From Trueperaceae bacterium (GTDB taxonomy: Bacteria > Deinococcota > Deinococci > Deinococcales > Trueperaceae), in contig OZ243927.1 of assembly GCA_965213925.1 (NCBI GenBank), positions 4,000,001 through 4,064,000 of the forward strand: 64,000 bases of DNA, given 5' to 3'. Below, in pieces: positions 18,452 through 22,654 of this stretch. The notes beneath the pieces are model-generated. The model was not told the DNA's origin and ran no database searches. It was given only the letters and a program-made list of their open reading frames with translations. Position 1 is the stretch's first letter. Each line of letters starts with the position of its first letter. A program made the position numbers and the translations under genes.

Positions 18452-19165
18452 GTGACCTTAGATGTTCAGTTTGTGCCGCGCAGCACGGATGATAGTAAAC
18501 CTGATACAGCTGTTGTAGTCGACGTTTTACGGATGACGACCACCTCAGGACTTCTCTTCTCGAAAGGGTTAGAGGAGCTTTTCGTCGTCGCAGAAGTCGA
18601 GGACGCAAGAGGTCTGGCGGCTCAAACGGGCGCACTCCTTTTGGGTGAAAGAGGTGGAGAGAAGGTGGAGGGATTCGACGGGGGCAATTCGCCGCTCGAG
18701 TACACCCAATCTCTAAGCGGTCAAAAGGCTATTTTATGCACCTCGAACGGTTCCAAAGCAGTTCAAACAACTCGAGAGGTTGAGCATGTCCTTTTAGGCG
18801 CAATCGTTAATGCAAAAGCGGTGGCGGCAAGGGTGCTCGAGGTTGCTACGAAAAACATCACGCTAATCTGTGCGGGAACGGGTGGACATATTTCTTTGGA
18901 CGACGTTATCGGCGCGGCGTGTATCGCCAGGGAACTGTTAGACTTCAATTCCAAGCTAGACCTCACAGACGCCTGCAAGATTGCGGTGGGGAGTCTCGAG
19001 CTGAACTCCGACCTCTTGAGCGGCTTACAAGGTGCCCACCACAGCACTGTTCTAAAGAATTTGGGCTATGAAGAAGATATCGCTTTCGCCGCCAAGCTCA
19101 ACCTCTTAGACACCGTACCTGTACGAGCCTCGCGAAATCCGACTTGCTTCACACTTGCGACGTGA
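18452..19165 (+). CDS. comB: 2-phosphosulfolactate phosphatase family
   Basis: VVVDVLRMTTT, GERGG, GFDGGNSP, TSNGS, SLDD. Confidence 0.88.
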   Translation: MTLDVQFVPRSTDDSKPDTAVVVDVLRMTTTSGLLFSKGLEELFVVAEVEDARGLAAQTGALLLGERGGEKVEGFDGGNSPLEYTQSLSGQKAILCTSNGSKAVQTTREVEHVLLGAIVNAKAVAARVLEVATKNITLICAGTGGHISLDDVIGAACIARELLDFNSKLDLTDACKIAVGSLELNSDLLSGLQGAHHSTVLKNLGYEEDIAFAAKLNLLDTVPVRASRNPTCFTLAT

Positions 19166-19659
19166 ACGCCTACACTGTCAAACTGCTCAAACCGGGCAAA
19201 GGTACGGAAATTACCTATCAAGGTTTTGAACTGCTACGCGAACCGAATCATCTGCTCATTCATGCGCGGTGGGACAGAGACGCGCTCGAGCTTGGTTACG
19301 TGACCTTTGAGACCGGCGACCACTTTTATGAACACTACTACACGAACAAATGGTTCAACATCTTCGAAATTCGTAGTGAAAGAGGTCGGCTCAAGGGCTG
19401 GTACTGCAACGTGACGAAACCGGCGAGGGTCGAAGACCGCACGGTTTACTCAGAAGATTTAGAACTCGACCTCTTTGTCTCGGCGGACAGGAGGCACGTA
19501 GTCACGCTCGATAAAGAGGAGTTTGAGGAGAGGGAGTTTAGCCAAGAGGTTCGGGAGGCTGCTTTGAATGGGCTCGAGGCGTTGCGAAAGATGGCGCGTT
19601 TGGCTACGCCACCCTTTGACAGTACCTCTTCCCGTTTGAGTCTGGGCAAGTCGGTGTGA
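19162..19659 (+). CDS. DUF402 family protein
   Basis: KWFNIFEI...GWYCNV..P...DLELDL...LDKEEF; GTGA overlap. Confidence 0.8.
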   Translation: MNAYTVKLLKPGKGTEITYQGFELLREPNHLLIHARWDRDALELGYVTFETGDHFYEHYYTNKWFNIFEIRSERGRLKGWYCNVTKPARVEDRTVYSEDLELDLFVSADRRHVVTLDKEEFEEREFSQEVREAALNGLEALRKMARLATPPFDSTSSRLSLGKSV

Positions 19660-20051
19660 AGCTCATAGGCTATCCCTGGGACGTAGTAAGGGAACTCGCG
19701 CTTCCAGCACATGACTACGCCATTTTCGGCAGCGCACCTCTTCTTGCCTACGATTTAATCGAAAAGGTTGGCGATATAGACCTTTTGGCGAGGGGTGAAG
19801 TGTGGGAGAGGGTTCAGCAGTTCGGTTTCATAGAAACTACGCCGAAAGGCGATAAAGTTGTCCGACTTGATGAAGGGCTCGAGGTATTTAACGCCTGGCT
19901 CGGCTTGAACACTGACGACATTATCAACCATGCCAAAATTATAGACGGGCTTCCCGTTGCAAACCTAAAGGACGTGCTCGAGTTCAAAAAGCAGCTCAAC
20001 CGACCTAAAGATAAGACCCACATTGCGCTTATTGAGAGCTTTTTACATTGA
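19656..20051 (+). CDS. hypothetical protein, nucleotidyltransferase-like
   Basis: IFGS...GDIDL...RPKD. Confidence 0.65.
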   Translation: MKLIGYPWDVVRELALPAHDYAIFGSAPLLAYDLIEKVGDIDLLARGEVWERVQQFGFIETTPKGDKVVRLDEGLEVFNAWLGLNTDDIINHAKIIDGLPVANLKDVLEFKKQLNRPKDKTHIALIESFLH

Positions 20052-20076
20052 CATCCCCTTTGCGCCTTGTTACGAT
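20048..20076 (+). promoter_or_regulatory. sigma70 promoter of the aspS leader
   Basis: TTGACA 20048-53, 17-nt spacer, TGn-TACGAT 20071-76; predicted start at about the ATG 20084. Confidence 0.8.
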
Positions 20077-20083
20077 ACCCGCA

Positions 20084-20146
20084 ATGAAATGTGCCGCACG
20101 CCCAAACAACCTATCTAATAATGATGATTGGCAGTTCGGGGCATAG
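20084..20146 (+). CDS. Asn/Asp-rich attenuator leader peptide (MKCAARPNNLSNNDDWQFGA)
   Basis: 6 of 8 consecutive codons are Asn/Asp; leaderless; directly upstream of a terminator and aspS. Confidence 0.8.
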   Translation: MKCAARPNNLSNNDDWQFGA

Positions 20147-20168
20147 GCGTCACGACGATGCTATGACA

Positions 20169-20201
20169 CCCCGAGGCGAACCTCGGGGATTTTTCTTTTT
20201 T
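20169..20201 (+). terminator. attenuator terminator upstream of aspS
   Basis: CCCCGAGG-CGAA-CCTCGGGG followed by ATTTTTCTTTTTT. Confidence 0.85.
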
Positions 20202-20212
20202 GGGAGTTCAAT

Positions 20213-21496
20213 ATGATAACCGCAACCCGCAGCCTCGTGTCTGAAATTCCGACGCAGTTAGGTGAAAATGTTCTTCTAAGGGGCTGGGTGCACAACCGCC
20301 GCGACTTGGGCGGCGTCAAGTTTTTAATCCTGCGTGACCGGAGCGGTCTGGTACAGTGCGTTTTCTCCAAAGGGGACATGCCGCTGCAAGAGAGCTGCGT
20401 CGAGGTAACCGGCAAGGTTGTTGAAAATGCGCGGGCTCCGGGCGGCTTTGAACTCCACGCCGACGGGCTCCACATCATCTCCGAAGCGACGGACGCGCCG
20501 CCCATCGAAATCCCGAAAGAGGAGTGGACGGTCAACCCGGATACGCTTTTGGAGTACCGCCACGTCTCGCTAAGAGGTCAAAAGGCGCAAGCCGCGATGA
20601 AGGTGCAAGCCGAACTCGTGCGCGCCTTTCGCGCTTATCTCAACTCGGAGCAGTTCACCGAAATCTTCTCCCCGAAAATCGTCGCCGCGGGCGCAGAAGG
20701 GGGCGCGAACCTCTTCGAGGTGGACTACTACGGCAAACGCGCCTACCTCGCACAGTCGCCGCAGCTCTACAAGCAGATTATGGTGGGCGTTTACGAGCGC
20801 GTCTATGAGACCGCGCCGGTCTACCGCGCCGAACTCTCGCACACCTCGCGCCACCTCTCCGAATACCTCTCGCTGGACGTGGAGATGGGCTTTATCGACT
20901 CTGACAGCGACGTGATGGATTTGGAAGAAGCGCTGCTCAAGTCCATGATGGCGCACGTCGGGGAGCACTGCGAGCGGCAACTCGGGGTGATGGAGGCGGA
21001 GCTTCCCAACCTAAACGTCACCTTTCCGCGCATCCCTCTTTTCGAAGCTCGAGACCTTATCAAAGAGCGCTACGGACACCAGACGGGCGGCAAAGACCTA
21101 GACCCCGAAGCCGAACGCCTCTTAGGGCGCTGGGCGAAAGAGGAGCACGGTTCGGACTTCGTCTTCGTGACGCACTACCCGCAGGCGGCGCGTCCCTTCT
21201 ACACCTACCCGACCGAGGACGGGCTCACACGCGGGCTCGACCTCATCTTTCGTGGCGTCGAAATCACCTCGGGCGGGCAGCGGATTCACGAGTACGGCGC
21301 GCTTGTTGACGAGATGAAGAAGCGCAACATGGACCCGGAGCGTTTTCAGGGCTACTTGGAAGTGTTCAAACACGGGATGCCGCCGCACGGCGGGTTTGCG
21401 ATTGGGGCGGAGCGGCTGACGGCGCTGCTTTTAGGAATTAGCAATGTGCGCTTTGCGCGGGCGTTTCCGAGGGATGGGAGTCGGTTGCAGCCCTAA
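20213..21496 (+). CDS. aspS: aspartate--tRNA(Asp/Asn) ligase, short archaeal-type non-discriminating (AspRS2)
   Basis: 427 aa, LRGWVHNRRDLG, ARAPGGFE, LAQSPQLYKQ, YRAE, SGGQRIH, GMPPHGGFAIGAERL. Confidence 0.93.
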   Translation: MITATRSLVSEIPTQLGENVLLRGWVHNRRDLGGVKFLILRDRSGLVQCVFSKGDMPLQESCVEVTGKVVENARAPGGFELHADGLHIISEATDAPPIEIPKEEWTVNPDTLLEYRHVSLRGQKAQAAMKVQAELVRAFRAYLNSEQFTEIFSPKIVAAGAEGGANLFEVDYYGKRAYLAQSPQLYKQIMVGVYERVYETAPVYRAELSHTSRHLSEYLSLDVEMGFIDSDSDVMDLEEALLKSMMAHVGEHCERQLGVMEAELPNLNVTFPRIPLFEARDLIKERYGHQTGGKDLDPEAERLLGRWAKEEHGSDFVFVTHYPQAARPFYTYPTEDGLTRGLDLIFRGVEITSGGQRIHEYGALVDEMKKRNMDPERFQGYLEVFKHGMPPHGGFAIGAERLTALLLGISNVRFARAFPRDGSRLQP

Positions 21497-21631
21497 ATTT
21501 TATGTCAATGACAAGGTAGCTTTCAATCAGGAGTATTCCCCTCTGCCGAAACAGTGTATTACGACGTTGACAATTAGGCTGCGAACTGGGTTAGCTCGGT
21601 CACGAGGGCGTTTTCATAGATTAGGTTTTTA

Positions 21632-22180
21632 ATGTCACAAAAAATTCGGCAGGAAAATGGAGGGTCCAACGCAAAAGCCGTCTCTTCTAGAAAGGGAATG
21701 GTCTGGGTCATTCTTATGGTTTCTATCGGTGGAGGACTCGTCATGGCAGCGTACAATATCAAAACGTTTTTGAGCGGGGGCAACGTTAGCCTTCAAGAAC
21801 TTTTAGTTACTCTAGCCATGATTGTATTCTTTATGTGGCTCGTGCTAACTAGCTCTACCCTCAAAGTCGAGGTGGACAAGGAGGGCATAATCTTCAACAG
21901 CATCTGGGGAGAGCGGACGCTCGCGTGGAAGGAGATACACAGCATAACCGTCCTTCCCGGCTACGGTTACATCCCTTTCATCGGCTACAATGTCTTGCTT
22001 CATACTACGACCTCGAGACGCGCCGTGCCGCTTGTCACTATAATGTTCGGTAATAGTCACAAGGTCATGAAAGCTGTTATAGAGGCGTCTTACCGAAGCA
22101 ACCCCGGCATCAGCATCAAAGGAAGTCTGCTCGACACCTACGGCTTGCCTCCCTACGGAATCTTCAAGCTAGAAAAGTGA
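21632..22180 (+). CDS. hypothetical membrane protein (bacterial PH-like)
   Basis: Two TM segments then GI..IWGERTLAWKEI. Confidence 0.6.
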   Translation: MSQKIRQENGGSNAKAVSSRKGMVWVILMVSIGGGLVMAAYNIKTFLSGGNVSLQELLVTLAMIVFFMWLVLTSSTLKVEVDKEGIIFNSIWGERTLAWKEIHSITVLPGYGYIPFIGYNVLLHTTTSRRAVPLVTIMFGNSHKVMKAVIEASYRSNPGISIKGSLLDTYGLPPYGIFKLEK

Positions 22181-22435
22181 GGCAGTCGCACTAGGCAAAG
22201 GGGTACCTCTATTTTGGGCGCTTGAGGGCTATCACTAAACTTACTCAAAAGACCATATTTTTGCGTGTAATAGAAGATGTTCCGTTTTGCGTGTATACAA
22301 AGTTTGCACCATCTCTTCTCGAGCAAGCTCTTACAAACAGCTACCCGAACGCGACCAGATAGAATCACTTAAAGCATGGTTACAGGAGAAGTAGGACAAT
22401 ACCTAATCAGGTACTTTTGCTGTAAAATACGAATT

Positions 22436-22654
22436 ATGACGACGCTTCTCGAGCAAGCCTTCTCCAAAGCCTCACAGCTACCCGAGCGCGAGCAGGACGC
22501 ACTTGCCGAACGCCTCTTAGCCGAGCTTGCCTCGGAGGAGCGCTGGAGAACGCTTTTCGGTGAATCGCAAGATTTACTCTCTGAGTTAGCTGAGGAAGCG
22601 TTGGCGGAGCACAGTGTAGATAAAACAAAAGTTCTACATCCTAATGATTTGTAG
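22436..22654 (+). CDS. putative antitoxin (orphan)
   Basis: MTTLLEQAFSKASQLPEREQDALA...EERW..LF..SQDLL..LAEEALAEH, a type usually upstream of RelE/ParE-like toxins; TAAAAT 7 nt before ATG. Confidence 0.7.
   Translation: MTTLLEQAFSKASQLPEREQDALAERLLAELASEERWRTLFGESQDLLSELAEEALAEHSVDKTKVLHPNDL

Follow-up and report, generated by a model that had tools for sequence, protein, structure and literature searches.

Leader-peptide attenuators are classically represented by trpL, hisL, leuL, thrL and pheM of Enterobacteria, and pheST is the precedent for an aminoacyl-tRNA synthetase placed under leader-peptide control. In Firmicutes, aspS or asnS is preceded by T-box riboswitches, in which uncharged tRNA binds the RNA directly and no open reading frame (ORF) takes part. 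Among leaderless systems, the polycysteine upstream ORFs (uORFs) of mycobacteria are described as attenuators whose codons for a single amino acid set downstream expression (bioRxiv 10.1101/834739). Closer still is Deide_10019 of Deinococcus deserti, a peptide with the sequence MFAALANNNDNDPH, which Supplementary Table S9 of de Groot et al. 2014 (PMC4007540) lists as a putative leader peptide with "Aspartyl-tRNA synthetase, non-discriminating" (Deide_10020) as its regulated gene. Here we analyse the leader of aspS2, which encodes a non-discriminating aspartyl-tRNA synthetase (AspRS), in a 64,000-nt stretch of a Trueperaceae genome (contig OZ243927.1, positions 4,000,001 to 4,064,000), which we refer to as the window. 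We propose, with a probability of about 0.8, that this leader is a ribosome-mediated leader-peptide transcription attenuator of aspS2 and the Trueperaceae ortholog of Deide_10019.

In D. deserti, a transcription start site (TSS) enriched by terminator exonuclease (TEX) treatment in differential RNA sequencing (dRNA-seq) falls on the first base of the Deide_10019 ATG, with a TACACT -10 box 7 nt upstream (PMC4007540). The main text of that paper contains no occurrence of aspS, asparagine or aspartyl, and the leader appears in its supplementary tables only. The original prediction for the window, which was made from the sequence, left open whether an Asn/Asp leader had been described before; the D. 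deserti entry shows that one had already been listed as putative. A search of the full-text literature (one supplementary file of PMC4007540 excepted) found no description of an aspS attenuator with Asn/Asp codons other than these D. deserti tables. A structured aspS leader in Shewanella is listed in PMC2659441, in an entry that mentions no Asn/Asp codons, and we found nothing on aspS in PMC4833913. As far as the literature that we found extends, what is reported below on conservation throughout the family and the order, on covariation and on the codon pattern goes beyond what is in print.

The elements of the locus, all of them in the window, are as follows.

20048-20053, + strand: -35 hexamer TTGACA, overlapping the TGA stop codon of the upstream ORF at 19656-20051
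20068-20076, + strand: extended -10 box TGT-TACGAT, with the hexamer TACGAT at 20071-20076 and TG preceding it
20084-20146, + strand: leaderless-type leader ORF, with ATG at 20084, 20 codons and TAG at 20144-20146, encoding MKCAARPNNLSNNDDWQFGA followed by the stop
20105-20128, + strand: sensor codons, AAC AAC (20105-20110) and AAT AAT GAT GAT (20117-20128)
20135-20146, + strand: antiterminator 5' strand, TTCGGGG plus CATAG, spanning the last three sense codons and the stop
20148-20160, + strand: small inner hairpin CGTC-ACGAC-GATG at the antiterminator tip, which by folding fits either state
20169-20201, + strand: intrinsic terminator, CCCCGAGG-cgaa-CCTCGGGG and then ATTTTTCTTTTTT
20202-20206, + strand: Shine-Dalgarno-like GGGAG, 6 nt 5' of the aspS2 start
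20213-21496, + strand: aspS2, non-discriminating archaeal-type aspartyl-tRNA synthetase of 427 aa, the regulated gene

The promoter matches the consensus at 10 of 12 positions, with a 17-nt spacer between TTGACA and TACGAT, and its -10 box lies 7 nt from the leader ATG. Six of the 20 leader codons specify Asn (20105, 20108, 20117 and 20120) or Asp (20123 and 20126). The downstream protein scores 563.6 bits against the aspartate--tRNA(Asn) ligase model NF003483 (cut-off 353), is also above the cut-off for TIGR00458 (398.9 bits), and contains the Pfam tRNA-synt_2 and OB anticodon-binding domains. The parts list of the original prediction, namely a TTGACA-17-TACGAT promoter before ATG 20084, a 20-aa uORF with clustered Asn and Asp codons, a terminator at 20169-20201 ahead of aspS2 and a non-discriminating AspRS downstream, was therefore recovered in full.

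Like Deide_10019, the window leader belongs to the Deinococcales, lies directly upstream of a non-discriminating AspRS ortholog (a protein of ~429 aa in D. deserti), has clustered Asn and Asp codons and shows a 7-nt gap between the -10 box and the ATG. This geometry is the one found at the mapped D. deserti TSS, and it is the basis on which the start in the window is placed. The leader peptides themselves are of different length, 14 residues in D. deserti and 20 in the window. At four Deinococcus-type loci that we recovered (L029, L030, L097 and L098), with leaders such as MNAANNNVNDDPC and MFAAHNNVNDDPC that resemble the published MFAALANNNDNDPH, the Asn/Asp cluster ends 2 codons before the stop and a G-run follows the stop codon, whereas in the window 5 codons separate the cluster from the stop and the last codons contain the G-run. 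Deide_10019 is known as a putative entry in the published tables; the structures and the conservation described here come from the present comparison.

With the classical attenuators the window shares a short ORF with cognate codons, mutually exclusive antiterminator and terminator structures, and a stop codon positioned to block the antiterminator. The classical leaders start from a Shine-Dalgarno sequence and form a 1:2 pause hairpin, whereas the window leader is leaderless by its geometry and no conserved 1:2 helix was found. A further difference is that two amino acids would be sensed, corresponding to both tRNA-charging outputs of one enzyme, and no Rfam leader family is matched: a cmscan search of positions 19000-22500 at E values up to 10 returned only chance-level matches carried by the terminator hairpin (anti-hemB, E 0.62; NsiR1, E 3.5). 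The mycobacterial attenuators resemble the window in having a leaderless ORF at the 5' end, but they differ in using Cys rather than Asn/Asp codons, in occurring in Actinobacteria and in preceding other genes (bioRxiv 10.1101/834739). A T-box riboswitch would serve the same purpose, in that synthetase expression follows tRNA charging through a choice between terminator and antiterminator. We rejected a T-box at this locus, as the same cmscan search of 19000-22500 gave no T-box match at E values up to 10 and the leader, at ~130 nt, is too short for one.

The case for attenuation in the window depends on two structures that compete for one strand. The terminator stem (20169-20188) has 8 bp, 7 of them G-C, closed by a 4-nt loop and followed by ATTTTTCTTTTTT; folded alone it has a predicted energy of -15.6 kcal/mol. 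In folding, the last codons and stop of the leader ORF, TTCGGGGCATAG (20135-20146), pair with 20163-20175, so that the stop codon TAG 20144 itself sits within the antiterminator strand. When 20135-20175 is folded alone it forms a hairpin of -19.2 kcal/mol that occupies 7 of the 8 bases of the terminator 5' arm. The earlier proposal that segment 20135-20150 masks this arm is borne out by the fold, and also by covariation of the pairing. Three elements by which an attenuator is recognised are thus found together here: a leader ORF with Asn/Asp codons, an intrinsic terminator, and a strand-sharing antiterminator that would be covered by a ribosome at the stop codon.

Covariation was measured in 63 distinct Trueperaceae leaders (alignment A1). 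These derive from 67 loci at which a strict finder detected a perfect hairpin with a T-rich tail, from which we dropped L002 (identical to the window), L005 (where another hairpin had been picked), and L012 and L114 (without a recognisable leader). In the terminator helix 95.0% of cells were paired and 6 of 8 pairs had changed on both sides, which none of 500 shuffles equalled; the paired percentage is inflated, as the leaders were chosen for perfect hairpins. The antiterminator helix, between the G-run strand and the terminator 5' arm (20169-20175), was not selected for, and here we observed pairing in 90.6% of cells, changes on both sides at 6 of 8 pairs and again none of 500 shuffles equal. 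Sliding the partner by one column reduced the antiterminator pairing to 62-67%. As the leaders are related by descent, the shuffle counts overstate significance for both helices. Individual leaders show three-way changes, in which a terminator 5' arm of CCCCAAGG or CCCCGAAG is matched both by the G-run strand (TTGGGG, CTTCGGGG) and by the terminator 3' arm (CCTTGGGG, CTTCGGGG). Comparing stems across aspS2 upstream regions had been suggested with the original prediction, and in that comparison both the terminator and the antiterminator covary.

A second line of evidence is the conservation of the leader peptide's Asn and Asp codons. We retrieved aspS2 loci through the AspRS protein, so the leader had no part in their choice. 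The gene is present in 40 of the 41 genomes sampled from the genus, family and order, and 25 of the first 30 loci have a short Asn/Asp ORF between a TTGAC-type promoter and a terminator. In the family sample it is present in 101 of 112 genomes, a count that includes the unpublished genome G097, from which no sequence was used. We then took 60 further Trueperaceae upstream regions, of the 78 new genomes with a match, together with 10 loci from other families; the 18 new genomes left unsampled include G097 and genes at or near contig ends. Leader ORFs were called with a finder that is blind to codon composition (a TTGAC-like hexamer, 16-19 nt, TAnnnT, 4-12 nt, the first ATG and an ORF of 4-59 codons), with the following outcome.

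Trueperaceae: 84 loci, 70 with a uORF, 62 with adjacent Asn/Asp codons, 64 with both Asn and Asp; Asn plus Asp make up 19.4% of in-frame codons vs 1.3% and 3.8% in the other frames
Four other Deinococcales families: 16 loci, 15 with a uORF, 14 with adjacent Asn/Asp codons, 13 with both Asn and Asp; Asn plus Asp make up 39.5% of in-frame codons vs 2.5% and 0.6% in the other frames

The Asn/Asp-rich uORF of the original prediction is therefore found in relatives, adjacent Asn/Asp codons occurring in 62 of the 70 Trueperaceae uORFs and 14 of the 15 from other families. The promoter is kept with it: 70 of 84 Trueperaceae aspS2 loci have a TTGAC-like -35 hexamer at 16-19 nt from the -10 box, and relatives retain the extended -10 element as TGYTAnnnT. 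In the 70 Trueperaceae leaders the gap from the -10 box to the ATG has a mode of 7 nt (7 nt in 40, 8 nt in 16), and the median peptide length is 20 residues, compared with just 7-13 residues beyond the family. Through these changes in length the frame stays open between an ATG placed at leaderless distance and a stop codon on the antiterminator strand. The following leaders are representative.

Trueperaceae pattern: ...DDNSxxRxLGA
Family f3: MRGLLNNDR
One genus of family f4: MLRADDNL, MLWLANC
Thermus type: MGPLIGNNAG
Deinococcus type: MNAANNNVNDDPC
Fifth family: MKCFFNNSADDDN

The residues that flank the Asn/Asp cluster differ completely among families, and the order of the cluster itself varies (DDN, NNDD, NND, NDD, NN, ND), as would be expected of hunger codons more than of a fixed arrest motif. 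In 44 of 62 Trueperaceae leaders, 8 codons separate the end of the cluster from the stop, compared with 0-2 codons in the other families, where the G-run lies 3' of the stop; in all five families the stop codon is inside or right at the antiterminator strand.

We also scanned 185,579 species genomes with a separately built RNA pattern that specifies the G-run, the stop codon and the terminator but no Asn/Asp codons. It gave 58 matches, 45 of them just upstream of aspS2, and every one of these 45 has a short ORF with Asp and Asn codons, adjacent in 42 and arranged as D-x-N or N-x-D-x-D in 3. All aspS2-linked matches with a stated group are Deinococcota, and the other 13 matches are ordinary gene ends in other phyla. 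The 45 matches share species with the protein-based sample, and the two sets are not independent.

Together, the elements of the locus, their conservation, the frame-specific enrichment of Asn and Asp codons and the covariation of both helices support the identification of this leader as an attenuator. The core of the original prediction, a leaderless Asn/Asp leader that chooses between an antiterminator and a terminator before the AspRS gene, likewise gains comparative support from the in-frame Asn/Asp conservation and the covariation.

We propose that the switch would operate as follows. Transcription would begin at or beside the A of ATG 20084, and with the 5' end at the ATG a 70S ribosome could load without a Shine-Dalgarno sequence. 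When charged tRNA-Asn and tRNA-Asp are ample, the ribosome would reach TAG 20144 and cover TTCGGGGCATAG, the terminator (20169-20188) would form, and RNA polymerase would halt in the T-run. When Asn-tRNA(Asn) or Asp-tRNA(Asp) is scarce, the ribosome would stall at 20105-20128 and leave the G-run free; the G-run could then pair with CCCCGAG as soon as this is transcribed, locking the terminator 5' arm until the polymerase has entered aspS2. The additional AspRS2 would yield more Asp-tRNA(Asn), the substrate of GatCAB, as well as more Asp-tRNA(Asp), and the leader would thereby monitor both products of the enzyme under its control. Ribosome stalling, a kinetic choice of structure and induction by starvation are what we infer from the arrangement. 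If the footprint of the ribosome is assumed to reach 12 nt past the A-site codon, stalls on AAT 20117 or 20120 in the window leave the G-run free.

Several observations weigh against this proposal. Under the same footprint, of the 7 antiterminator bases, 1 would be covered by a stall on GAT 20123 and 4 by a stall on GAT 20126; the window Asp codons lie just 12 and 9 nt before the antiterminator strand, and an Asp stall may not free it, which makes the Asn codons the better placed sensors in the NNDD order of the window. Most relatives have only 2-3 sensor codons. At equilibrium the combination of terminator and inner hairpin (-25.2 kcal/mol) is more stable than the antiterminator (-19.2 kcal/mol) at every modelled ribosome position, and the antiterminator must therefore act kinetically; being transcribed first and leaving almost no toehold, it would have to serve as a kinetic trap. 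Nor is there a conserved 1:2 (pause or anti-antiterminator) helix between the uORF 5' part and the G-run, since in 58 leaders this duplex had a mean z of -0.37 relative to composition-matched shuffles. The window duplex reached z -1.35, that is, 1.35 standard deviations better than shuffles, and the alternative pairing with 20101-20107 put forward in the original prediction is accordingly unsupported beyond base composition. C-rich uORF 5' parts could still play a 1:2 role. In D. deserti, the untreated library has 117 sense reads on the leader of 45 nt and 118 on the gene of 1290 nt (PMC4007540), an excess that is weak evidence of termination, as the libraries are 5'-biased.

Further points of this kind come from relatives in which the arrangement is altered. 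Fourteen of the 84 Trueperaceae loci gave no promoter-defined uORF. Two of them are cut by contig ends, yet the Asn/Asp end is still visible in them, as are the G-run and the terminator; in three from one genus, leaders of the MNPPRLDDDNWWYGA type follow a weak -35 element. Of the others, five low-GC loci have an ambiguous arrangement, and four lack the attenuator, the same promoter being followed at leaderless distance by the start of aspS2 itself. Eight of the 70 uORFs lack adjacent Asn/Asp codons. Six of these have non-adjacent Asn and/or Asp codons, one (MILRLPFNPLQRPAKLLLR) keeps the RNA and has a single Asn and no Asp, and one is a tiny ORF, MRLSARLA, which overlaps the aspS2 start (ATGA) and is without Asn/Asp codons or a terminator. 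The attenuator is thus dispensable, lost repeatedly or never gained in the four direct-start loci and the MRLSARLA locus (L019, L023, L139, L161 and L157, the direct-start loci having a TTGACA-17-TAGACT-type promoter). A perfect hairpin with a T-rich tail was called at 67 of the 84 loci, and at least three of these calls (L005, L012 and L114) are not the leader's terminator. Two Thermus-type loci, L095 and L099, have a uORF (MGPLIGNNAG and MRLPQGNDA, each followed by a stop and then the G-run) and a long C-run/G-run hairpin with no T-run, and the switch at these loci may not be a canonical intrinsic terminator.

The alternative that survives best, to which we give a low probability, is that the element is a constitutive dimmer: the uORF would be translated, the terminator would lower aspS2 expression or end an upstream operon, and the Asn/Asp codons would be inherited baggage. 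Such an element would agree with an equilibrium fold that is always the terminator and with relatives that dispense with it, and read-through from the upstream ORF, which ends inside the -35 box, would also meet the terminator; the response to Asn and Asp, moreover, is something that we infer. What a dimmer does not explain is an Asn/Asp cluster kept over five families while the remaining peptide changes completely, or an antiterminator strand that covaries with the terminator arm, of which a plain terminator has no need. The four other leaderless uORF-terminator sites in this genome, described below, precede ilvB, leuS, leuC and pheST, and also weigh against a dimmer.

The next alternative arises from the codons themselves, which in Trueperaceae are fixed at the nucleotide level as GAC-GAY-AAT (columns ~24-32 of alignment A1), a further point against a pure hunger-codon reading as it hints at an additional or alternative signal in the DNA or RNA. 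Among 45 Trueperaceae leaders with a [DE]-D-N core, the third codon is AAT in all 45, the first is GAC in 39, GAA in 5 and GAT in 1, and the second is GAT in 28 and GAC in 17, whereas just 101 of the 774 other codons of the same uORFs have T as third base. In ten relatives whose aspS coding sequence has a G+C fraction at third codon positions (GC3) of at least 0.85, AAT occurs 3 times vs 49 for AAC in the coding sequence, and 13 times vs 4 for AAC in the leaders. The hexamer GAYAAT resembles a -10 box; the window variant reads AAT AAT GAT GAT (20117-20128). In D. deserti, a second TEX-enriched TSS (1211341) has the leader's GATAAT listed as its -10 motif at a 7-nt spacing (PMC4007540), which indicates that the holoenzyme can read the hexamer.

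From these facts one could argue that what is conserved acts as a nucleic-acid signal, either an internal promoter or a site of sigma-dependent pausing, and that the choice between antiterminator and terminator is set by something else, such as a protein or the position of the polymerase. We consider this slightly less probable than a dimmer. The frame is kept from a leaderless-distance ATG to a stop on the antiterminator strand despite changes in length, the Asn/Asp enrichment is frame-specific, the AAC AAC, AAT AAC GAC and AAT AAT GAT GAT of other families and the window are not all GAYAAT, and on reading the leaders we saw neither TG nor anything like a -35 element ahead of the hexamer. AAT would be explained equally well by a rare Asn codon that is read by wobble, and a signal of this kind is compatible with hunger codons rather than exclusive of them. 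Within the attenuator reading, a slow, wobble-read AAT codon could sharpen the Asn sensor; rare codons are known to sharpen sensing in the leu leader. It is also conceivable, though rather unlikely, that the sensor codons do double duty, with GAYAAT acting as a sigma-recognised -10-like element that provides a sigma-dependent pause or an internal promoter exempt from attenuation. Such a pause would hold RNA polymerase until the ribosome from the 5' AUG catches up, in place of a 1:2 pause hairpin.

A sequence-specific arrest peptide of the TnaC, SecM or Erm type, sensing free Asn, free Asp or another small molecule instead of tRNA charging, is very improbable: Trueperaceae do show strong conservation of the D-D-N core and of R-x-L-G-A at the C-terminus, but the tail is accounted for by the RNA pairing encoded there (CTCGGGGCNTAG), motif order and flanks vary by family (NND-R, DDN-L, NNNVNDDPC, NNAG), and the 7-13-residue peptides outside Trueperaceae are short for contacts with the exit tunnel.

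If the attenuator reading holds, it bears on how a pathway is controlled. AspS2 and GatCAB form the tRNA-dependent asparagine route in Deinococcus and Thermus, and to our knowledge it is their only asparagine biosynthesis pathway. Our literature search found no worked-out regulation of the aspS2/GatCAB route, and a conserved Asn/Asp attenuator would offer a concrete, testable answer, in which the first enzyme of the pathway is induced when ribosomes lack its end products. We know of no textbook list of attenuator amino acids that includes asparagine; the present leader would be a documented attenuator for it, and also a clear example of a leader peptide of the leaderless type. An RNA family model could be built from the comparative set, which comprises ~100 loci of five families and shows covariation in both helices, and the unchanging AAT codon poses a small puzzle.

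The genome that contains the window (4.75 Mb, 58% G+C) also has genes for an AsnRS (471 bits), an AspRS of the bacterial type (731 bits) and two AsnB-family proteins above the cut-off, with gatA, gatB and gatC dispersed at separate places. In such a background AspRS2 would provide an accessory, tRNA-dependent route to Asn-tRNA(Asn), one that it is sensible to induce. A strict scan of the whole genome (TTGAC-N17-19-TAnnnT, 5-11 nt, ATG, an ORF of 5-40 codons and a perfect terminator) returned five sites, that of aspS2 and the four listed here, with coordinates on contig C1.

C1:3570151, + strand: ilvB leader, MFHVHFTFLFTEFASEFVAVMAGGVLILGSWGVV then stop, leaderless-type uORF and terminator, rich in Val/Leu/Ile
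C1:3796857, + strand: leuS leader, MTYSFTTLRLGGSKHE then stop, leaderless-type uORF and terminator, two Leu
C1:2299608, - strand: leuC leader, MFYPRANLLSLISLGVVAA then stop, leaderless-type uORF and terminator, rich in Leu
C1:259318, - strand: pheS-pheT leader, MRGYLASPFTK then stop, leaderless-type uORF and terminator, one Phe

With just five sites in the strict scan and conservation in relatives, the aspS2 arrangement exceeds chance, and the five-site picture matches the small set of leaderless attenuators in Deinococcus. Inspection by eye revealed no comparable leader before asnS, aspS1 or the two asnB-family genes, and neither a script nor inspection by eye revealed one before gatA or gatC. 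A uORF encoding MNDADELIA lies 120 nt upstream of gatB (C1:1590399-1591802), has no terminator and is probably there by chance. About 3 kb from gatB, asnS (C1:1595084) itself appears to be leaderless, with TACACT, 7 nt and then the ATG.

Some smaller features of the locus and its relatives were also recorded. The ORF directly upstream of the aspS2 promoter (19656-20051, + strand, 131 aa) has no Pfam or NCBIfam match. A C-terminal end like its own (...RPKD..HI.L...) precedes aspS2 in several relatives, and the upstream ORF and aspS2 therefore form a syntenic pair. Within the leaders, an AGG triplet (Arg) is widely kept two codons before the CTCGGGG strand, as part of the ...R-x-L-G-A tail (columns ~42-44 of alignment A1), and the window carries CAG at this place; AGG is a rare codon in G+C-rich genomes and is Shine-Dalgarno-like. 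Finally, a same-genus genome has a second aspS2 copy (L105, locus coordinates 1-641) that is 86% identical and contains one in-frame TGA. Its promoter and ATG are kept, an insertion of ~180 nt separates the leader ORF start from the NND...LGA end, and leader and gene both look decayed.

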